Source: Bacillota bacterium (lineage in GTDB: Bacteria; Bacillota; Clostridia; Christensenellales; CAG-138). Taken from it: a stretch of 60,764 nucleotides of DNA. The stretch is taken from assembly GCA_022707005.1 (NCBI GenBank), contig JAKJBL010000001.1, positions 9,454 through 70,217 on the forward strand, written 5' to 3'. Both the position numbers and the translations under genes were made by a program. A model generated the notes under the pieces. That model saw nothing but the letters and a program-made list of their open reading frames with translations. It searched no databases and was not told where the DNA came from. Each line of letters opens with the position of its first letter. The stretch's first letter is position 1. Positions 1,473-26,921 of this stretch are shown here, piece after piece.

Positions 1473-3623
1473 GTGGAAGCTGCAGGCGTTTGTTTTAACA
1501 AACAAAAGCAACCAAAGATAAAGGCGCAAAGCCATATTGTAGCACTTTTAGGCAACCCGAATGTAGGAAAAAGCACGATTTTTAATGCGCTTACAGGTAT
1601 GCGCCAGCATACCGGCAACTGGCCCGGGAAAACTGTAGAAAATTGCCGGGGAAATTTTTTGTATAATGGCGCAGCTTATGAGCTTGTTGATTTGCCCGGC
1701 ACCTATTCGCTTATGGCTTCCTCAGAGGAAGAAAAAATAGCGTGCGATTTCCTCTGCAATGGCGATATGACATCTTCGTATGAAGCTTTTTATGATGCTG
1801 CTGTGGTAGTATGCGACGCGACATGCCTTGAGCGCAATTTAAACCTTGTGCTGCAGACGCTTGAAATAACGCCAAGAGTAGTCGTATGCCTTAACCTTAT
1901 GGATGAAGCTAAAAAAAAGGGAATCTCAATTAACCTCGAAAAGCTCGAACAATGCCTCGGTGTACCTGTTGCAGCTACAACTGCAACAGCAAAACATGGG
2001 CTAAAGGGGCTGTTGAATAAAGTTGAAATGGTTTGCTGCGGATATATTCCAAAGCCCCTGTATGTGACCTATGACGAGCCTATTGAGGAAGCTGCAAAGC
2101 TTGTTGAAGAAACTCTTGCTAATGCAAAAATTAAGGTTAATAGCCGCTTTGCAGCATTAAGGCTGCTCCAACATGAGATTTCTTCCTCTGAAAACCTTGA
2201 TGAGCTTTTGGGCATTTCGCTTTCAGCCCATGAGGAGCTAAATGCAGCGCTTATACAAGCGCGGCGCTTGCTCAGCAAAGAAGGCTATAGCGAGCTTCGC
2301 ATAAAAGACAGATTGGTAGCAGGGATTTTTGCCCATGCAGAGCGGATTTATAAAGAAACTGTAACGCATGAGGCGCTTACGTATTTGAAGGGTCAGCTCA
2401 AGGCAGACCGTATCTTAACAGGCAGGTGGTCCGGGGCTGTAATTATGCTCCTTCTGCTTGCGGTTGTGTTTTATATTACGCTTGTTGGAGCGAACTATCC
2501 TTCAATGCTTATTTCAGGCGCTCTAACCTATGTAGAGACGCAGCTTCTCAACTTAGCCGCATATATAGAGGCGCCGAAGTGGCTTTCGGATGCTCTGATT
2601 TTAGGCATGTTTCGCGTGCTTTCGTGGGTTGTATCAGTAATGCTCCCGCCTATGGCGCTCTTTTTTCCGCTTTTTACACTGCTTGAGGATTTGGGCTATC
2701 TCCCGCGGGTCGCTTTCAATCTTGATAACAGCTTCAGGCGCGCAAATGCGTGCGGCAAGCAAAGCCTTACCATGTGCATGGGGCTTGGCTGCAACGCTGC
2801 AGGGGTAATTGGCTGCAGAATCATAAACAGCCCGCGCGAACGGCTAATAGCAATACTCACGAACAATTTTGTGCCATGCAACGGCCGCTTCCCAACGCTT
2901 ATAGCAATTATAAGCATGTTTTTTATAAGTGCTTCAGCACGCTACGCAAATTCGCTGCTTGCTGCACTTATGCTCACAGGCTTTATTGCGCTTGGCATTT
3001 GGCTGACCTTTGTTTCTTCAAAGCTGCTTTCTAAAACTCTGCTTCGCGGAATTCCGTCCTCGTTTGCGCTTGAGCTGCCGCCGTATAGAGTGCCCCAGGT
3101 CGCAAAGGTGCTTTTGCGCTCCCTGTTTGAGCGCACTCTGTTTGTGCTTGGCCGCGCTGCGCTCGTTGCTGCGCCTATGGGGCTATTTATTTGGCTGCTT
3201 GCGAATATCCGCGTAGAAGGGCTTGCGCTGCTTAAATACTGTACAGCGTTTCTTGATGCCCCTGCGCGCATTTTCGGGCTTGATGGGGCAATACTTATGG
3301 CCTTCATTTTAGGGCTGCCTGCAAACGAAATAGTTATGCCGCTGCTTATTATGACTTATCTTTCAGAAGGCGCGCTGCTTGAACTTGACTCGCTTCTTGC
3401 CTTTAAGACGCTCCTTCTCGAAAACGGGTGGACATGGATAACAGCGCTTTGCACAATGCTGTTTACGCTTTTGCATTGGCCTTGTTCAACTGCGCTTATA
3501 ACTATTTGGAAGGAAACAAAAAGCCTTAAATGGACTGTTGTTGCGTTCCTTTTGCCAACTGCGTTCGGTCTTGCGCTTTGCGCGGCAGTTGCAGCTTTAG
3601 GCCGTGCATTCGGGATAAACTGA
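1473..3623 (+). CDS. feoB: Ferrous iron transporter FeoB (N-terminal G-domain plus polytopic permease)
   Basis: 716 aa. The G1 motif LLGNPNVGKSTIFNALTG and DLPGTYSL are followed by a long hydrophobic permease. The GTG start lies 6 nt after AAGGAG, inside the feoA 3' end. Confidence 0.95.
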   Translation: MEAAGVCFNKQKQPKIKAQSHIVALLGNPNVGKSTIFNALTGMRQHTGNWPGKTVENCRGNFLYNGAAYELVDLPGTYSLMASSEEEKIACDFLCNGDMTSSYEAFYDAAVVVCDATCLERNLNLVLQTLEITPRVVVCLNLMDEAKKKGISINLEKLEQCLGVPVAATTATAKHGLKGLLNKVEMVCCGYIPKPLYVTYDEPIEEAAKLVEETLANAKIKVNSRFAALRLLQHEISSSENLDELLGISLSAHEELNAALIQARRLLSKEGYSELRIKDRLVAGIFAHAERIYKETVTHEALTYLKGQLKADRILTGRWSGAVIMLLLLAVVFYITLVGANYPSMLISGALTYVETQLLNLAAYIEAPKWLSDALILGMFRVLSWVVSVMLPPMALFFPLFTLLEDLGYLPRVAFNLDNSFRRANACGKQSLTMCMGLGCNAAGVIGCRIINSPRERLIAILTNNFVPCNGRFPTLIAIISMFFISASARYANSLLAALMLTGFIALGIWLTFVSSKLLSKTLLRGIPSSFALELPPYRVPQVAKVLLRSLFERTLFVLGRAALVAAPMGLFIWLLANIRVEGLALLKYCTAFLDAPARIFGLDGAILMAFILGLPANEIVMPLLIMTYLSEGALLELDSLLAFKTLLLENGWTWITALCTMLFTLLHWPCSTALITIWKETKSLKWTVVAFLLPTAFGLALCAAVAALGRAFGIN

Positions 3624-5599: not shown

Positions 5600-6988
5600 A
5601 TGCAGGTTTATAATACGCTGACACGCAAAAAAGAGGATTTTATTCCTGTTAAAGAAGGCAAGGTAAGCATTTACGCTTGCGGGCCCACTGTATACAACTT
5701 CTTCCATATAGGCAATGCGCGGCCGTTCATTGTTTTTGATACTCTGCGCAGATATTTTGAATACCGCGGCTATGAGGTCACCTTCATTCAAAATTTTACT
5801 GATATTGACGATAAAATGATTCGCAGAGCAAATGAAGAAGGCATAACAGTGCGCGAGTTGAGCGAGCGGTTCATACGCGAATACTATATTGACGCAGATG
5901 CGCTTGGCGTGCGCCGCGCAACTAAAAATCCGCGTGCAACAGAGCATATAGACGACATAATCGAAATTGTTAAGGCTTTGCTTGAAAAGGGGCACGCTTA
6001 TGTAACTGAAGATAATGACGTGTATTTTTCCGTACGGAGCTTTCCTGCATACGGCAGGCTTTCAGGCCAAAGCATTGACGATTTAGAAAGCGGCAGCAGG
6101 GTTGACCCCGGTGAGCAAAAACAGGATCCGCTCGATTTCGCTTTGTGGAAGGCACAAAAACCGGGTGAACCTGCATGGGAAAGCCCCTGGGGCTTAGGCC
6201 GCCCAGGCTGGCATATTGAATGCTCTGCTATGAGCATGAAGCTTTTGGGCGAAACCTTCGATATTCACGCAGGCGGGCAGGATTTAATCTTCCCTCACCA
6301 TGAAAACGAAATTGCCCAAAGCGAGGCTGCAACAGGCAAACCTTTCGCCAAATATTGGATGCATAATGGCTATATAAACGTAAACAACCAGAAGATGTCA
6401 AAGAGCCTCAATAACTTCTTCACAGTGCGTGAAATTGCAGCTGAATATGAGCTTGAGGCTGTGCGGCTGTTTATGCTAAGCGCGCATTACAGGAGCCCTG
6501 TGAACTTTTCGCGCGAGCTTATAGAGCAGGCGCATGCAGCGCTGAGCAGGCTTAAAACTGCAAAGAGCAGGCTTGAAGAAGCGCAGGTTGGCCCGGCAAC
6601 TAATGAAGACGAAGCTTTTGTGAGCGGGCTTGCTGCCTATAAAAAAGCGTTTTGCGAAGCTATGGATGACGACCTTAATACAGCCGATGCACTTGGCACC
6701 CTTTTTGAGCTTGCACGCGCGTGCAATACATTTGTGAGCGAGCCGCGCTCAAAAGAAGCGCTTGAAGCAGGCAGGAACCTTTTTAATGAGCTTTCCGGTG
6801 TGTTGGGGCTGCTTGAAGGCTCTGTTGAAGAAGAATTTCCAAAAGAGGCGCTAAACCTCGTAAAAGAGCGCGAAAATGCGCGCCTAAATAAGGACTGGGC
6901 AGAAGCTGACGCTCTGCGCGAGGCTCTAAAGCAAATGGGCTACACTGTTGAAGACACAAAGCAGGGTCCAAAACTAAAGGCGCTTTAA
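5600..6988 (+). CDS. cysS: Cysteine--tRNA ligase
   Basis: It has the class I motifs HIGNARP (HIGH) and KMSKS, and begins [14 protein letters not shown]. The start at 5600 is supported by GGAGG; the ORF track begins at a GTG at 5579. Confidence 0.95.
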
Positions 6989-9722: not shown

Positions 9723-9741
9723 GGCTTTATGCTCCTAAAAT

Positions 9742-9779
9742 AAACTAATACCCCGCACTTATGGCCGGGGTATTAGTTT
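9742..9779 (-). terminator. Intrinsic terminator downstream of livF
   Basis: AAACTAATACCCCG ... CGGGGTATTAGTTT forms a perfect 14-bp stem. The minus-strand reading is followed by ATTTTAGG. Confidence 0.7.
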
Positions 9780-9806
9780 TGCCTTTTATATAAGTTTTAT
9801 GTAGCT

Positions 9807-10526
9807 TTAGTTGCCTCCCTTTCCGAGGTAGGCCTGTTTTACCTTTTCGTTGTTTAGAAGCTCGCTGCCTGAGCCAGTCATAATTATTGAGCCTGTTTCA
9901 AGCACATACCCGCGGTTAGCGATTTTTAGCGCAGCGTTTGCGTTTTGCTCAATTAAAAGCACAGTTACGCCTTCGTCATTTATGCGCCGGATTATATCGA
10001 AAATGCCCTTTACTACAAGCGGCGCAAGCCCTAAAGAGGGTTCGTCCATCATAATAAGCTTAGGCCTTGCCATAAGCGCCCTGCCTACTGAGAGCATTTG
10101 CTGCTCCCCGCCTGAGAGCGTGCCTGCCATTTGCCAGTTGCGCTCTTGTAAACGGGGAAAGAGCGAATATACATGGTTTATGTCTGCGTCTATTCCGTCT
10201 GCGTCTTCGCGTAAATAGGCGCCGATTTTTAAGTTTTCGAACACTGTAAGGTTCGGAAACACACGCCTGCCCTCGGGCACAAGCGTTACCCCTTTGCCGA
10301 CTATTTTTTGGGTTTCAGCAGCTGAAATTGGTTCGCCCGAATATTCAACGCTGCCGCCGCTTTTTTGCACAAGCCCCATTATAGCGCGCAAAGTCGTGGA
10401 TTTGCCTGCGCCGTTTGCGCCTATAAGAGTAACGATTTCGCCCTCGTCAACTGAAAATGTAATGCCTTTAAGCGCCTCAATTCCGCCGTAGGAGACTTTT
10501 AAGTCAGTAACACTAAGCAGGCTCAT
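9807..10526 (-). CDS. livF: Branched-chain amino acid ABC transporter, ATP-binding protein LivF
   Basis: Walker A GANGAGKST, signature LSGGEQQ, and a LivF-type C-terminus (NEKVKQAYLG). Confidence 0.9.
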   Translation of the reverse strand: MSLLSVTDLKVSYGGIEALKGITFSVDEGEIVTLIGANGAGKSTTLRAIMGLVQKSGGSVEYSGEPISAAETQKIVGKGVTLVPEGRRVFPNLTVFENLKIGAYLREDADGIDADINHVYSLFPRLQERNWQMAGTLSGGEQQMLSVGRALMARPKLIMMDEPSLGLAPLVVKGIFDIIRRINDEGVTVLLIEQNANAALKIANRGYVLETGSIIMTGSGSELLNNEKVKQAYLGKGGN

Positions 10527-23297: not shown

Positions 23298-23960
23298 CTA
23301 ATTCAGGTTTTCTATTGCAGGCTTTTTATATAGGCAGGTTTTATTTAATGTGCAGCTGCTGCAGCCCCTGCTGTTTGTTGTAGGTTCTGAATTTGTTATG
23401 CCGATTATGGCAGTAATGGATTTCAGAGGGACAAGCATTGACTTTTCAGTGCAGGAAAGGCCGATTGTTTTTGCAGCATCTAAAATTCTAAGCAGTGTTT
23501 GCTGGTATGAAAGCGAAAAGTCACCGTATCCGGGCGAAAAGCGCTCACAAAGGCAGAGCCCTCTTTTTGCGTATGCTTGTCTAAGCTCATCCTGAACATT
23601 ATCAACAGCGCTCTCAAGCAAAGAGGCGGCGCATGCGTGCAGCACAAGACAGGCAGGCATATCTGTTTTTGAATACGCCTTTATCAGGGTATCTACGCCT
23701 GAGCCAAGGGTTGCGCAAAACAGCAGGCAATGCGTGCAGGTTTTAAGGTGGATGGAAAGCGCGCGGCTTTTTATGACATCGCCATTTAGCATTATGCTGT
23801 TTTCACTAACAGCAATCGGAAATTCGCGCAGGGTGTACTTAAAGGCAGCTGCGTTTTCAAGCGCAGGCAGGCAGGCGTTTAATATTGCTTCTGTCTGGCT
23901 GTCGGGCTCTAGTTGAGAAAAGCCGAGATACCTTAAAGCTTCCTTTTTGTTTACCCGCAT
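23298..23960 (-). CDS. Stand-alone methionine synthase activation (reactivation, AdoMet-binding) domain protein
   Basis: 220 aa with an RFSPGYGD motif. It lies between metF and metH and overlaps the metF 3' end by 10 nt. Confidence 0.7.
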   Translation of the reverse strand: MRVNKKEALRYLGFSQLEPDSQTEAILNACLPALENAAAFKYTLREFPIAVSENSIMLNGDVIKSRALSIHLKTCTHCLLFCATLGSGVDTLIKAYSKTDMPACLVLHACAASLLESAVDNVQDELRQAYAKRGLCLCERFSPGYGDFSLSYQQTLLRILDAAKTIGLSCTEKSMLVPLKSITAIIGITNSEPTTNSRGCSSCTLNKTCLYKKPAIENLN

Positions 23961-24832
23961 AATCTTACCTGCTGTATTATAAAACTTATGTTTTGCATGA
24001 TTGCCTTTGCAATTTCGGGTTTGTTCATTGTGTAAATATGGATGCCGCGCACGCCGTTTGCAAGAAGGTCAATAATTTGCTCTGTTGCATACGCTATGCC
24101 CGCCTGCTCCATTGCTTTTTGGTCGTCTCCGAACTTATCGAGGATGCTTAAAAAGCGCGGGGGAAGCGCAGTGCCGCTAAGCTCCACAATCCGCGAAATT
24201 TGTTTTTTATTCGTTACAGGCATAATCCCTGCAAGCACAGGTATGTTTATGCCATGCTCGCGGATTTTGTATAAAAACCTGTATAGAATATTATTGTCAA
24301 AAAACATCTGCGTTGTTAGAAAGTCGCATCCCGCATCTGCCTTCTCTTTTAAATGAAGGAGGTCCTCCTGTTGGCTTGCGCTTGAAACATGGCCTTCAGG
24401 GTAACACGCAGCTCCTATTGAAAATCCGCCAAAATTCTTTATAACATCTACAAGTTCGCTTGCATATTTAAAATGGCTGTTTCCTGTTAAGGCATAACCT
24501 TGAGGGATATCCCCCCTAAGCGCAAGAATATTCTTTATGCCTGCCTCCTTTAGGCGTGAAATAAGCCCAAGCACCTCATCTTTTGAACAGCAGACGCATG
24601 TAAGGTGCGCAAGCGCAACTGCGTTGCTTTGCTTTATGCACTCTGCCATTGCAAGCGTATTTTTTGAGTTGCTGCCGCTTGCGCCGCATGTAACGCTTAT
24701 AAAATCAGGGTTAAAAGCTGCGGTTGCTCCGACTAGCGCTTCTGCGCGCTCCATATTCCATTCGTCCTTAGGCGGGAACAGTTCACATGAAACTGTTGCC
24801 CTGTTGTTTTTAAGCATATCCCGAATAAACAC
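23951..24832 (-). CDS. metF: 5,10-methylenetetrahydrofolate reductase
   Basis: 293 aa. ATVSCELFPPK, HLTC and NILALRGD blocks are typical of MetF. It has a GTG start at 24832. Confidence 0.9.
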   Translation of the reverse strand: MFIRDMLKNNRATVSCELFPPKDEWNMERAEALVGATAAFNPDFISVTCGASGSNSKNTLAMAECIKQSNAVALAHLTCVCCSKDEVLGLISRLKEAGIKNILALRGDIPQGYALTGNSHFKYASELVDVIKNFGGFSIGAACYPEGHVSSASQQEDLLHLKEKADAGCDFLTTQMFFDNNILYRFLYKIREHGINIPVLAGIMPVTNKKQISRIVELSGTALPPRFLSILDKFGDDQKAMEQAGIAYATEQIIDLLANGVRGIHIYTMNKPEIAKAIMQNISFIIQQVRLCG

Positions 24833-24863
24833 TTATAACAGCCCTTTCTTTATGCCGATTTAT

Positions 24864-24897
24864 AAAAAAAGCCCTGCCTCGCGTTGCGAGACAGGGC
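24864..24897 (-). terminator. Strong intrinsic terminator in the metF 5' leader (attenuator)
   Basis: On the minus strand, GCCCTGTCTCGC AAC GCGAGGCAGGGC (12 bp, one G-U pair) is followed by TTTTTTT. It ends 31 nt upstream of the metF start. Confidence 0.8.
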
Positions 24898-24913
24898 ATA
24901 ACCTGCTTTGCCG

Positions 24914-25006
24914 TTATTTTAGCGGCATTCGCAACACCAAAAGCAGTGTGGGATACATCATTCCACACATGGGCATCAGCATGGTTTTGGTATTGAGCGT
25001 TTTCAT
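24914..25006 (-). CDS. Putative methionine-rich leader peptide (30 aa, MKTLNTKTMLMPMCGMMYPTLLLVLRMPLK)
   Basis: ATG at 25006 is preceded by AAGGAA (25019-25014, 7-nt spacer). 7 of 30 codons are AUG, at positions 1, 9, 11, 13, 16, 17 and 27. The TAA stop lies 16 nt before the terminator stem. The ORF is too short for the ORF track. Confidence 0.55.
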   Translation of the reverse strand: MKTLNTKTMLMPMCGMMYPTLLLVLRMPLK

Positions 25007-25034
25007 AGCCGCGTTCCTTTTCTTCTCTTAGGGC

Positions 25035-25063
25035 ATAGTAATGCACAGCCAAGAATTTGTCAA
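25035..25063 (-). promoter_or_regulatory. Near-consensus sigma-70 promoter for the metF leader (TTGACA-17-TACTAT)
   Basis: On the minus strand, -35 is at 25063-25058 and -10 at 25040-25035. The predicted TSS is near 25028. Confidence 0.65.
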
Positions 25064-25094
25064 GCTAAAGCGGCATTTATGCAGCGTAAAGCTT

Positions 25095-25112
25095 CAGAAA
25101 ACTGGTTTTCTG
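25095..25112. repeat. 18-bp palindrome CAGAAAAC TG GTTTTCTG
   Basis: Read directly, in the divergent region between the metF leader promoter and the Gfo/Idh/MocA gene. Confidence 0.8.
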
Positions 25113-25191
25113 CACAAAGCGCTTGAGTTAAAGGGCAAAGATGCGCTATTCTTAATATATTCTTGAAAAGAGCTGGCTTTGGGAGGCAAAA

Positions 25192-26181
25192 ATGAAACAA
25201 AAAAAGATGGGGATTCTTGGTGCAGGCAGTATAGCTGTAAAAATGGCAGACACAATCAGGCAAATGGAGAGCGTAATTCCTTATGCAATAGCTTCCCGCG
25301 ACCTTAATAAGGCGGAAGCGTTTAAAGCTGCGCATGGTTTTGAAAAAGCCTACGGCTCATATATGGAGCTTTGGAGCGACCCTGAGGTTGACTTTATTTA
25401 TATTGCAACCCCTCACTCGCACCATGCGGAACAGGCAAAATGCTGCATCTTAGCCGGCAAGCCTGTGCTTTGTGAAAAGGCGTTTACAAAAACAAGCCAG
25501 GAGGCAAAAGAGGTGCTTGCGCTTGCAGCTGAGCGCAAGGTGCTTATAGCTGAGGCAATTTGGCCGCGCTATATGCCTATGGCGCAAACCCTCAAAGAAT
25601 TTGTAGAGAGCGGCACGCTTGGCAAAATAACATCCCTAAGCGCAAACCTCGGCTACAATGTGTTCAAAAAGCCGCGCGTAAATGACCCTGCGCTTGCAGG
25701 CGGCAGCCTGCTTGATGTTGGCGTATATACGCTCAACTTTGCCTCAATGCTTTTTGGCAATGACATAAAAAAGGTCACCTCCTCATGCGTTATGAGCGAA
25801 ACAGGCGTTGATACGCAAAATTCAGTCATTTTAGAATATTCAGATGGCAGAACGGCTACTCTTTACAGCAGCGTTGTTTCATTTACTGACCGCATGGGCG
25901 TGCTTTATGGAGAAAAGGGGTTTGCGATAGTAGATAATATTAACAACTTTGAGGCGCTTCGCGTTTATGATAAAGAGTATAAGCTCATAGAGCATTTAGT
26001 GCGGCCTGCTCAGATTACGGGCTTTGAATATGAGGTGCTCGCAATGCTTGAAGCTATGGAAAACGGCTGGCTTGAATGCAAGCAGATGCCGCATAGCGAA
26101 ATAATAAGGATTATGGAGCTTATGGATTCAATCAGGCATAGCTCTAAGTTTTACTATCCAGGAGAAGCACGGCAAAACTAA
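25192..26181 (+). CDS. Gfo/Idh/MocA family NAD(P)-dependent oxidoreductase
   Basis: 329 aa. An N-terminal Rossmann fold (MGILGAGSIAVKMA), the EKAF motif (LCEKAFT), and a C-terminal alpha/beta domain. SD GGGAGG. Confidence 0.85.
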   Translation: MKQKKMGILGAGSIAVKMADTIRQMESVIPYAIASRDLNKAEAFKAAHGFEKAYGSYMELWSDPEVDFIYIATPHSHHAEQAKCCILAGKPVLCEKAFTKTSQEAKEVLALAAERKVLIAEAIWPRYMPMAQTLKEFVESGTLGKITSLSANLGYNVFKKPRVNDPALAGGSLLDVGVYTLNFASMLFGNDIKKVTSSCVMSETGVDTQNSVILEYSDGRTATLYSSVVSFTDRMGVLYGEKGFAIVDNINNFEALRVYDKEYKLIEHLVRPAQITGFEYEVLAMLEAMENGWLECKQMPHSEIIRIMELMDSIRHSSKFYYPGEARQN

Positions 26182-26191
26182 GGCATATAGC

Positions 26192-26217
26192 AAAAAGCCG
26201 GAGAACCCGGCTTTTTT
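26192..26217. terminator. Bidirectional terminator between the convergent oxidoreductase and isomerase genes
   Basis: AAAAAGCCGG AGAAC CCGGCTTTTTT. Confidence 0.6.
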
Positions 26218-26231
26218 AATACAAGCTAAGG

Positions 26232-26921
26232 CTAACGTTTATACAAAGGATATTCGTTGCAAAGGAGCCTGTAGGGCGGCTCGTCCTCTTCAATTGTAGA
26301 AAAGCGGCCAACAGGCGCATGGAAGCGGTTGTCGGATACATCGTCGTTGCACATGGAGACTTCCCCCAAAAGCACAGGCCCATGCCCCTCTTCAGCTGAA
26401 AAGTCGTGGTATAAATACGGTTGAATAGTTATGCTCTCACCCGGGGCAAGGCGCACCTGTGTGCCTGCAGGCACATTGTATGAGCGGCCGTCCTGCCTTA
26501 TTGCAACGTCTGTGTTTAAAAAGCCCGCTCCGTCTTGTGTTGAGTTGTATACGCGTATAAGGATATTGCCGCCTGCCCGGTTGATTATATCCTCCATTTT
26601 AGAGAAGTGAAAATGCATAGGCGCGTACTGCCCTTCTTCAAGGTATAAAAGCTTCTCAGCATAGCTTTTGGGGTAGCGCGCTCTGTCTAAAGTGTTTCCG
26701 TTTCGCAGTGTTATAAGAGAAAACCCGATTTTAGAGAATTCGCCCAAGCCGTAGTCGGTAATATCCCATCCAAGCATATTCTCGCGCACTTCGTCGTATT
26801 CTTCGTTTTTAGCTGCCCATTCTTTTGGGGTAAAGCTGCAAAAAGGCGGCAGCGAAAACCTGTGCGTATAAGCCATTTCTTCCATTTTGCGGATTGCTTT
26901 GTTTATTTCTGAGCGTTTCAA
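26232..26921 (-). CDS. D-lyxose/D-mannose family cupin sugar isomerase
   Basis: KRSEINKAIRKMEE at the N-terminus and PMHFHFSKMEDIINRAGGN (a cupin metal site) resemble YdaE-type D-lyxose isomerases. I place the start at the TTG at 26921, 6 nt after AGGAGG. The ORF track extends to 26966. Confidence 0.75.
   Translation of the reverse strand: MKRSEINKAIRKMEEMAYTHRFSLPPFCSFTPKEWAAKNEEYDEVRENMLGWDITDYGLGEFSKIGFSLITLRNGNTLDRARYPKSYAEKLLYLEEGQYAPMHFHFSKMEDIINRAGGNILIRVYNSTQDGAGFLNTDVAIRQDGRSYNVPAGTQVRLAPGESITIQPYLYHDFSAEEGHGPVLLGEVSMCNDDVSDNRFHAPVGRFSTIEEDEPPYRLLCNEYPLYKR

Follow-up and report, generated by a model that had tools for sequence, protein, structure and literature searches.

A methionine-codon-rich leader upstream of metF-metH in uncultured Clostridia: a candidate ribosome-mediated transcription attenuator

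In textbooks, the methionine genes of Firmicutes are controlled by S-adenosylmethionine (SAM) riboswitches, Met T-boxes or protein regulators, and leader-peptide attenuation is mainly a proteobacterial theme. We know of no methionine member among the curated leader families. What, then, controls a clostridial metF-metH operon that is preceded by a short open reading frame (ORF) crowded with methionine codons and by a terminator? The question is raised by a stretch of 60,764 nucleotides (nt) of contig JAKJBL010000001.1 (assembly GCA_022707005.1), hereafter the window, for which an earlier note had proposed a ribosome-mediated Met attenuator in place of an S-box or T-box. Our analysis, which is wholly computational, indicates that the metF-metH leader is probably a transcription attenuator in which the translating ribosome senses methionine through the charging of elongator tRNA-Met. 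In this scheme, translation of the ORF, stalling on methionine limitation, the relative timing of ribosome and RNA polymerase and the regulatory outcome are the parts that we infer.

All elements of the leader lie on the minus strand (Table 1), and strand reading together with consensus scans found the promoter, the Shine-Dalgarno (SD) sequence, the ORF, its TAA stop and the terminator where the earlier note had placed them. The promoter agrees with the consensus at 10 of 12 positions and is the top promoter-like site within 23500-26500 in a consensus scan; transcription would start at about 25028. For the SD of the window leader, a duplex of -6.5 kcal/mol with the anti-SD sequence was calculated. 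Met stands at codons 1, 9, 11, 13, 16, 17 and 27, that is, at 7 of the 30 codons, and five of these fall within codons 9-17 (the Met block). Chance hardly explains this clustering. ATG makes up 1.7% of the trinucleotides of the window, which gives a probability of 1.7e-7 for at least 5 ATG in nine codons, and among 121,528 nine-codon windows (six frames, 60.8 kb) the leader Met block is the sole case with 5 ATG. The terminator hairpin, with 9 G-C pairs and one G.U among its 12, has an energy of -21.7 kcal/mol; it begins 16 nt past the leader stop and ends 31 nt before the metF GTG (24832). Because the upstream neighbour, a GFO/IDH/MocA oxidoreductase gene on the + strand starting at 25192, is divergent, we place this terminator in the 5' leader and not at the end of a preceding gene. 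The 202-nt leader as a whole folds with z = -3.6 relative to shuffled sequences. Three of the features by which an attenuator is recognized are thus found together: clustered cognate codons, an SD-led ORF in the leader of an amino-acid operon, and an intrinsic terminator.

Relatives of the leader were collected by several routes. A MetF-based scan with one genome per species gave 80 loci, the top MetF identity being only 69%; when nine-codon windows free of stops and with 4 or more ATG were sought, small ORFs homologous to the leader ORF emerged in the three closest of them (L001-L003) and in L031. For the L031 ORF we did not accept the first ATG of the annotation, since it overlaps the -10 box; read from an in-frame ATG 36 nt further on, the leader has 29 aa and resembles the others. 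In L010 and L063, the Met-rich frames turned out to be an alternative frame inside metH. A pattern scan of metagenomes with ATGNTGATGCNNANGNGNGGNATGATG returned 44 loci, of which only L081 and L116 are true members, the remaining ones being Met-rich parts of ordinary proteins, for example archaeal zinc-ribbon transcription factors. Searching proteins with a leader-peptide profile found one called ORF (33 aa), which led to L125 and L126; such a search sees few leader peptides, as gene callers seldom report ORFs of this size. L127 (with two copies), L129, L130, L132 and L134 came from contigs that encode the closest MetF homologues, and an exhaustive profile search of protein representatives added P0123 and P0125-P0128, with contigs L135-L140. 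Two further hits, P0122 and P0124 (256 and 314 aa), matched via a CFVLR-like stretch and were discarded as tandem-repeat "proteins" (...NMPKCTFLYRSACFVLRLHSTWELA...) that look like translated repeat DNA. Weak matches to model R1 (84 sources) in L016, L047, L131 and at window 9735-9839 are no leaders either; on inspection they proved to be ordinary terminators, a 3' element resembling that of a T-box, and a terminator of the family type that no leader precedes. The resulting analysis set holds 16 leader DNA instances (the window and 15 others), 14 of them clearly distinct.

The hosts of these leaders are uncultured Clostridia only, in metagenome-assembled genomes (MAGs) labelled Clostridia, Bacillota, Feifaniaceae, Christensenellaceae, Oscillospiraceae or Eubacteriales. 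With the leader present in only 4 of the 80 species representatives, the family is narrow. It is worth stressing that the leader always stands before the first gene of a methionine operon, whichever gene is first (metY, metA or metF). Operons of the type metY-metA-metF-metH carry it in L001, L125, L129, L132, L135 and L137, a metA-metF operon in L003, metY-metA operons in L081 and L139, and metF-metH operons in the window, L031, L130 and L134. Two diverged copies occur in L127 (GCA_036677445.1), at 5815-5901 (+) and 12730-12626 (-), one before metF-metH and the other before metY-metA, which suggests a small Met-leader regulon. A TTGACA -35 element is found at the matching relative place in every homologue except L134, where the -35 falls outside the retrieved 90 nt. 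One contig, L116, comes from a metagenome and from the same species as the window (1556-1760, corresponding to window 25006-24800). It differs by a few single-nucleotide polymorphisms, with which pairing is kept or strengthened: GGA to GGG strengthens hairpin P1 (described below), and U to C turns a G.U of the terminator into a G-C. The metF start also changes, from GTG to ATG.

Comparison of the leaders indicates that the ORF is read as codons. The homologous ORFs have 28-34 codons with 4-8 internal AUG, and some were called as genes by gene callers. An SD sequence precedes all 14 distinct homologues, with an anti-SD duplex of -5.6 to -16.3 kcal/mol and a spacing of 7-12 nt. The 8-11 codons 5' of the Met block are free in sequence and number, the frame always staying open behind the SD. 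In the 14 distinct leaders, AUG accounts for 88 of 418 internal codons (21%), while the other two frames hold 0 and 0 ATG. Within the Met block, AUG occupies positions 1, 3 and 9 in 14/14 leaders and position 5 in 12/14, and the triplets between the AUGs differ at all three positions (CUG/AUG/UAU/UUA/GUC at one place, CCC/UGC/CGC/CUU/CCU at another). The sole length change within the block is one whole AUG, which enlarges the P1 loop. Conservation phased by triplets in this way is what regulatory codons predict, and not what a ligand pocket predicts.

The second line of evidence is the RNA structure. We analysed an alignment of the 16 leader sequences (A5) with RNAalifold and by pair counting per column; for hairpins P2 and P3, pairs were counted by folding each sequence separately, as MAFFT was unable to align that variable region. 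In the window, the 5' strand of helix P0 pairs with a 3' strand overlapping a segment that we call strand B. The result is an 11-bp helix in the minimum free energy (MFE) structure, and the P0+P1 domain has an energy of -20.2 kcal/mol. The pairing AUACCAAAA:UUUUGGUGU, which the earlier note had seen enclosing the Met run, is part of this helix. P0 in most relatives is GCAACAUGC:GCGUGUUGC, its core pairs being formed in 9-16 of 16 sequences, with a compensatory exchange at columns 14:67 (A-U in 9 leaders, G-C in 2). The register used by the window and L116 differs from that of most relatives, and the L001 subtype uses a box in the 5' untranslated region (UTR), so that a single P0 register for the whole family had to be abandoned. 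The function of P0 appears to be conserved, as far as the sequences tell, and its exact pairing not. Hairpin P1, inside P0, is paired in 99% of alignment cells, and 3 of its 6 pairs show compensatory changes (two U-A/C-G, one G-C/A-U); RNAalifold predicts it independently.

Strand B is nearly invariant in 16/16 leaders. Its partners are either P0 or the top of the terminator, and in the latter case the helix has 9 bp in the window and 8-11 bp in the homologues, with 94.8% of cells paired and columns 73:131 being A-U in 10 leaders and G-C in 2. The window helix appears in the fold of 24940-24881 and contains GUUGCGA:UCGCAAC, the pairing put forward before as an antiterminator. In L132 and L135, strand B has C for U, and both of its partners follow: the 5' strand of P0 has G for A, and the terminator loop has a G. 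Such a double match is expected if B pairs alternately with P0 and with the terminator. The terminator itself is paired in 96.8% of cells with 4 compensatory pairs, and it is also predicted independently by RNAalifold. P0, the B:terminator helix and the terminator, corresponding to mutually exclusive 1:2, 2:3 and 3:4 pairings, therefore each have conserved complementarity with some compensatory changes. Taken together, the relatives keep the short ORF, the clustered AUGs, the terminator and both alternative helices, which is the conservation that the earlier note had asked to see.

The antiterminator is more elaborate than a single helix. Between B and the terminator loop, both included, 16/16 leaders fold into the same three-way junction, made of the 8-11 bp of B with the terminator top, of P2 and of P3. 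P2 pairing is kept in homologue variants (AUGCCC:GGGCAU, UGCCU:AGGCA, AUGUGCU:AGCACAU), and a P3-type hairpin of differing sequence is present in the MFE fold of 16/16 leaders. The junction occupies 7-13 of the 10-14 nt of the terminator 5' arm, and its energy across the 16 leaders is -18 to -38 kcal/mol, compared with -16.5 to -28 for the terminator hairpin alone. For the window (fold of 24940-24881) it is -23.2 kcal/mol, with z = -3.3; once the 3' arm is added, the MFE structure becomes the terminator, at -31.8. The stop codon lies within the junction in every leader, where it falls either in P2 (loop or 3' arm) or at the beginning of P3, 6 to 21 nt from strand B. Several amino-acid changes preserve the pairs: Gly to Glu goes with Ser to Leu in P1 (L132, L135), Cys/Arg alternates with Thr/Ala codons, and in P2 a CCG to CCC change is accompanied by CGG to GGG. 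Such changes imply that, apart from Met, conservation is at the RNA level.

These observations lead to the following model. Transcription would begin at about 25028, and a ribosome would load at the SD (25019) and the ATG (25006). As long as it does not stall, strand B (24937-24929) would be held by P0, which encloses P1, or be traversed by the ribosome. A ribosome that reaches the stop would then sit on P2 and the start of P3, the junction would not form, and the 12-bp terminator would end transcription at U7, 31 nt before metF. When Met-tRNA is scarce, a stall at the Met codons of codons 9-17 would cover or sterically block the 5' strand of P0, leaving B, P2 and P3 free. B could then pair with the top of the terminator 5' arm and the loop, P3 would take the base of the arm and P2 would join them, so that the junction would remove the whole 5' arm and RNA polymerase would read through into metF-metH. 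P1 is possibly a pause hairpin. The leader has the sequence-level defining features of a trp/his-type leader-peptide attenuator, and a matching ribosome geometry is cleanly predicted for only some members of the family. The trp/his-like logic proposed in the earlier note is therefore supported in silico, with two refinements, namely the shape of the antiterminator and what a terminating ribosome covers. The note had expected a ribosome at the stop to cover the antiterminator strand itself. As a general rule this fails, given the variable distance from B to the stop and the approximately 3 nt of B that a ribosome at the stop would cover in the window; what stands is that such a ribosome occupies the junction, since the stop lies inside it in all leaders.

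Masking simulations, in which a terminating ribosome covers roughly -15 to +12 nt, agree with parts of this model. With the ribosome at the stop codon, the B:terminator helix drops to 0-0.4 expected pairs among the leaders listed, except for L127b (1.9). The 5' strand of P0 is covered by a ribosome with its A site at Met9 or Met11. The effect of a stall is clear in L130, which folds P0 without a ribosome and an antiterminator of about 8 bp with the A site at Met9, 11 or 13; the window, L127a, L134 and L031 show it in part, and the subtype of L001, L081 and L127b does not show it.

Several results count against the attenuator model. In the window, stalls at Met9 or Met11 give just 3-4 expected B:terminator pairs, since the SD/start region offers B another partner; with stalls at Met13-17, P0 forms again in silico unless the ribosome is taken to exclude it sterically. 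For L001, L127b and L081, the junction is predicted even without a ribosome and disappears only when the ribosome arrives at the ORF's end. In this subtype, a 5'-UTR box, ACAYGC(GA), stands just 5' of the SD (L001, at about 438-446, L125, L127b, L081 and L139) and complements (UU)GCGUGU of B; it seems to be the partner that sequesters B there, and a stall in the Met block leaves it uncovered. Methionine limitation should also lower fMet-tRNA and hence initiation on the leader, which favours termination in members of the P0 type. The 16 sequences are related, and the independent events behind the covariation are few; for the model, the effective number of sequences is 2.5. Finally, the high nucleotide conservation of P0-P1 would fit a ligand-binding RNA as well. 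As a separate observation, a helix of the ACAYGC box with B would span the Met block in full together with the SD and the start codon, an arrangement for which simple stalling does not account.

The most serious rival is a new metabolite riboswitch. Its aptamer would be P0-P1, and a ligand (SAM, methionine or a related compound) would stabilize P0, sequester B and cause termination, the ORF being incidental. P0 and P1 do covary, the unpaired nucleotides between and within them are highly conserved, the switch between P0, B:terminator and terminator is laid out like an S-box expression platform, and the element precedes genes classically under S-box control. Yet the conservation of the unpaired positions is exactly triplet-phased, the AUGs being fixed while neighbouring triplets vary at all three positions, and 88/88 AUGs lie in one frame that runs from an SD-led ATG (SD down to -16 kcal/mol) to a stop inside the junction. 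The P1 loop grows by a whole AUG, the shifted P0 register of the window is hard to square with a fixed binding pocket, and models of SAM, SAM-SAH and other riboswitches gave no match. We therefore regard a riboswitch as unlikely. A composite sensor, in which P0-P1 also binds SAM, Met or tRNA-Met, or programmes a pause of RNA polymerase, beside stalling on Met-tRNA, deserves mention because the nucleotide conservation of P0-P1 is unusually strong: the AUG-lined internal loop and the hairpin loop are conserved beyond what codon identity needs, for example CCC at block position 4 in 9/14 leaders. Nothing else speaks specifically for it, and we consider it distinctly unlikely; if true, a single leader would combine the state of tRNA charging with a metabolite signal in governing all of de novo methionine synthesis.

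The remaining explanations are less probable still. A small ORF and a hairpin might be real and yet no Met sensor, acting as a leaky terminator or as a generic translation-coupling upstream ORF that sets basal metF-metH expression; related genomes do manage without the leader (L004 with a promoter only, L131, L133). This is very unlikely, as it leaves unexplained the frame-specific Met enrichment, the exclusive link to methionine operons with whichever first gene, and the conserved mutually exclusive helices. We find it highly improbable that the nascent peptide is the sensor, in the manner of TnaC or SpeFL, with M-x-M-P-M-C-G-x-M ... C-V-L-R-M-P arresting the ribosome on free methionine or SAM and tRNA charging playing no part. 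The peptide motifs look conserved, and in several members the ORF closes with Pro-stop (RMP*), where termination is slow, but the conserved non-Met residues fall in helices P0, P1, P2 and B and change in the pair-preserving ways listed above (Cys/Arg, Gly to Glu with Ser to Leu, CCG to CCC with CGG to GGG). The family showed no residue conservation independent of RNA pairing, which is the mark of TnaC/SpeFL-type peptides. The C-termini are also diverse (RMPLK, RMPVTAV, RVYRLA, RVCL, RMC, SRNKA), a ligand-triggered arrest near the stop would sit on the junction and lead to termination, and the enrichment of Met codons would be left unexplained. A methionine-activated, TRAP-like protein that binds spaced AUG triplets and holds the terminating fold would account for AUG NNN AUG NNN AUG repeats with 3-nt spacing upstream of an antiterminator/terminator switch, which recall TRAP sites; TRAP of Bacillus subtilis binds (G/U)AG repeats. 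There are only 4-8 triplets, however, some of them contiguous, all in the reading frame of an ORF that has an SD and a positioned stop, and at none of the loci is a candidate RNA-binding protein gene linked. Such a protein is an extremely improbable explanation.

Known RNA families do not account for the leader. The Rfam cmscan of the whole window gave no match at gathering thresholds, and a scan of 24700-25300 with E up to 10 returned only noise with E >= 1 (PyrR, idnO, NsiR1, anti-hemB, snoJ33), arising from the terminator hairpin, with SAM-class, T-box and tetrahydrofolate (THF) models absent. The leaders of 13 homologous loci likewise had no Rfam match at gathering thresholds. In these scans no covariance-model match was obtained with the SAM riboswitch models (SAM-I/S-box RF00162, SAM-II to VI, SAM-SAH) or with the T-box leader model RF00230, which bears out the earlier note's failure to recognize a SAM-I riboswitch or T-box core. 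Its phrase "in place of an S-box or T-box" holds as context only: within 3 kb on either side of metF in 20 other Clostridia species (L004-L023), which lack the leader, no SAM riboswitch or T-box reached Rfam gathering scores either, and the idea that the leader replaced an S-box is unsupported. In a Christensenellaceae MAG (L016 2840-2945), a terminator 5' of metF follows the T-box-motif-like AAGUGGUAACACGGG, which scores below the Rfam T-box gathering score.

The note also knew of no standard Met leader-peptide family. For Rfam this stands, while for the literature it does not, since Met leaders have been proposed in Campylobacter jejuni (MetL, PMC3847290) and Streptomyces lividans (metL, PMC8079986). 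Our literature search found no account of the present Clostridia Met leader family. Leader peptides of the regular type are rare in Firmicutes (Naville & Gautheret, PMC2965389), and Seliverstov et al. (PMC1262725) found no RNA element at the methionine operons of Actinobacteria.

Table 1. Features of the metF-metH leader and operon in the window
Feature	Coordinates	Strand	Details
Promoter, sigma-70-type	25063-25035	-	TTGACA 25063-25058, 17 nt, TACTAT 25040-25035
Shine-Dalgarno AAGGAA	25019-25014	-	spacer of 7 nt to the leader ATG at 25006
Leader ORF, 30 codons + TAA (24916-24914)	25006-24914	-	peptide MKTLNTKTMLMPMCGMMYPTLLLVLRMPLK
P0 5' strand (segment 1), codons 4-8	24995-24985	-	CAAUACCAAAA, directly 5' of the Met block
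Regulatory Met block (predicted), codons 9-17	24982-24956	-	AUG at codons 9, 11, 13, 16, 17
P1 hairpin	24968-24946	-	GUGUGG (24968-24963):CCACAC (24951-24946); loop with Met codons 16-17
P0 3' strand	24942-24932	-	UUUUGGUGUUG, overlaps strand B
Strand B (segment 2), codons 24-26	24937-24929	-	GUGUUGCGA, partners P0 or terminator top
P2 hairpin	24927-24909	-	UGCCG (24927-24923):CGGCA (24913-24909); TAA 24916-24914 in loop beside 3' arm
P3 hairpin	24906-24891	-	GCAGG (24906-24902):CCUGU (24895-24891); sequesters base of terminator 5' arm
Intrinsic terminator, 12-bp stem 24897-24871 + U7 24870-24864	24897-24864	-	GCCCTGTCTCGC-AAC-GCGAGGCAGGGC
Strand B partner in antiterminator	24889-24881	-	UCGCAACGC: terminator 5' arm top, loop, first 2 nt of 3' arm
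metF, Pfam MTHFR	24832-23951	-	first gene of operon 24832-20901
220-aa MetH activation-domain-like protein, Met_synt_B12	23960-23298	-	second operon gene
metH, cobalamin-dependent, four domains	23288-20901	-	S-methyl_trans + Pterin_bind + B12-binding_2 + B12-binding

The GTG start of metF in the window is backed by alignment to homologues, besides the ATG at this place in L116. Directly on the 3' side of metH lie a gene for a Crp/Fnr-family regulator, 20812-20141 (-), and a thioredoxin gene, 20056-19742 (-). Some relatives without the leader keep parts of the arrangement. The next-closest MetF relative of this kind (L004 2895-3003) has the promoter TTGACA ... TACCATGCA with a UTR of just 60 nt, in which GGAATGATGAT may be a remnant of a deleted leader. 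L131 and L133 also lack the leader; at L131 4925-4965 a family-like terminator, GCCCUGUUUUGCAGCAGCGAAGCAGGG, stands before metA with no Met-rich ORF, and it may be a degenerate remnant. In a Christensenellaceae contig (L130 1102-1194), a NiCo riboswitch (RF02683, 57 bits) precedes a cation-efflux gene and is unrelated to the Met leader.

If the attenuator model is true, the charging of Met-tRNA, and not SAM, can control the whole de novo pathway (metY, metA, metF, metH), and such control works although AUG doubles as the initiation codon. The principle of leader-peptide attenuation and the idea of Met leaders, though seldom put forward, were known already, so that the gain would lie in the breadth of regulation and not in a new principle. 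Particular to the present family are its Clostridia host, an antiterminator in the form of a three-way junction, the comparative structural support, and the predicted control over the two halves of the de novo pathway. To our knowledge, this would be the first methionine leader with such support. The element is compact and suited for annotation, for example through a new covariance model, and the family accounts for several "hypothetical" proteins of 28-34 aa called in metagenomes. It also illustrates that small ORFs can be leaders, and that apparent peptide conservation is here largely conservation of RNA structure.

Among known systems, the leader is closest in layout to trpL, hisL, leuL, thrL, pheL and ilvL of Escherichia coli and Salmonella. 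It shares with them an SD-led short ORF rich in the cognate codon, the 1:2 (P0), 2:3 (B:terminator) and 3:4 (terminator) alternatives, a stop codon placed so that a terminating ribosome would prevent the antiterminator, and an intrinsic terminator just before the first biosynthetic gene. Unlike them, it is specific for methionine, with a single codon that is also the start codon, and it is hosted by Clostridia and not by Proteobacteria. Its antiterminator is a three-way junction instead of a single 2:3 hairpin, and it has in P1 an additional covarying hairpin, with regulatory codons in the loop. With the Trp, His, Leu and Thr leaders of Rfam it has no sequence or covariance-model similarity.

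The Met leader of C. jejuni offers a functional analogy only, compared by description: it is likewise a Met-codon leader ORF upstream of methionine genes. MetL has 20 aa with 3 Met codons and lies on a short terminated RNA before metBA, attenuation being proposed; the text consulted reports no analysis of alternative structures or covariation (PMC3847290). A later preprint describes initiation of MetL translation by profiling of translation initiation sites (TIS profiling, Ribo-seq) and a second Met-rich upstream ORF, CJsORF19 (MMYQMR), before a Met transporter gene (bioRxiv 10.1101/2022.11.09.515450). Both are shorter and have fewer Met codons than the Clostridia leaders. The metL of S. lividans, MSTTSDRTPATEATTTPGARCMCRRMCAF, is a predicted Met- and Cys-containing leader peptide before metNIQ; its transcript is leaderless, it has only 3 internal Met codons, and its authors found no typical intrinsic terminator (PMC8079986). 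It controls a transporter, while the Clostridia leader would control biosynthesis, and by description the two are set apart, with no evident relationship.

The S-box (SAM-I) and the Met T-box act on the same kinds of genes through a choice between antiterminator and terminator in the 5' leader, and the sequestering of B by P0 is analogous to the S-box anti-antiterminator. The present leader differs from them in having no RF00162, RF00230 or other SAM-class match, and its signal would be the availability of Met-tRNA, read by a translating ribosome, instead of SAM or the direct binding of uncharged tRNA. Ribosome-dependent attenuation in Gram-positives, where T-boxes and riboswitches usually dominate, is also represented by the His leader that precedes hisZ/hisS in Firmicutes (Naville & Gautheret 2010, PMC2965389) and by the Leu-rich ilv attenuator peptide of Staphylococcus aureus (PMC5794164). 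These concern other amino acids and have unrelated sequences. Compared with them, the Clostridia Met leader has comparative support over several uncultured lineages, and in one genome it precedes two operons.

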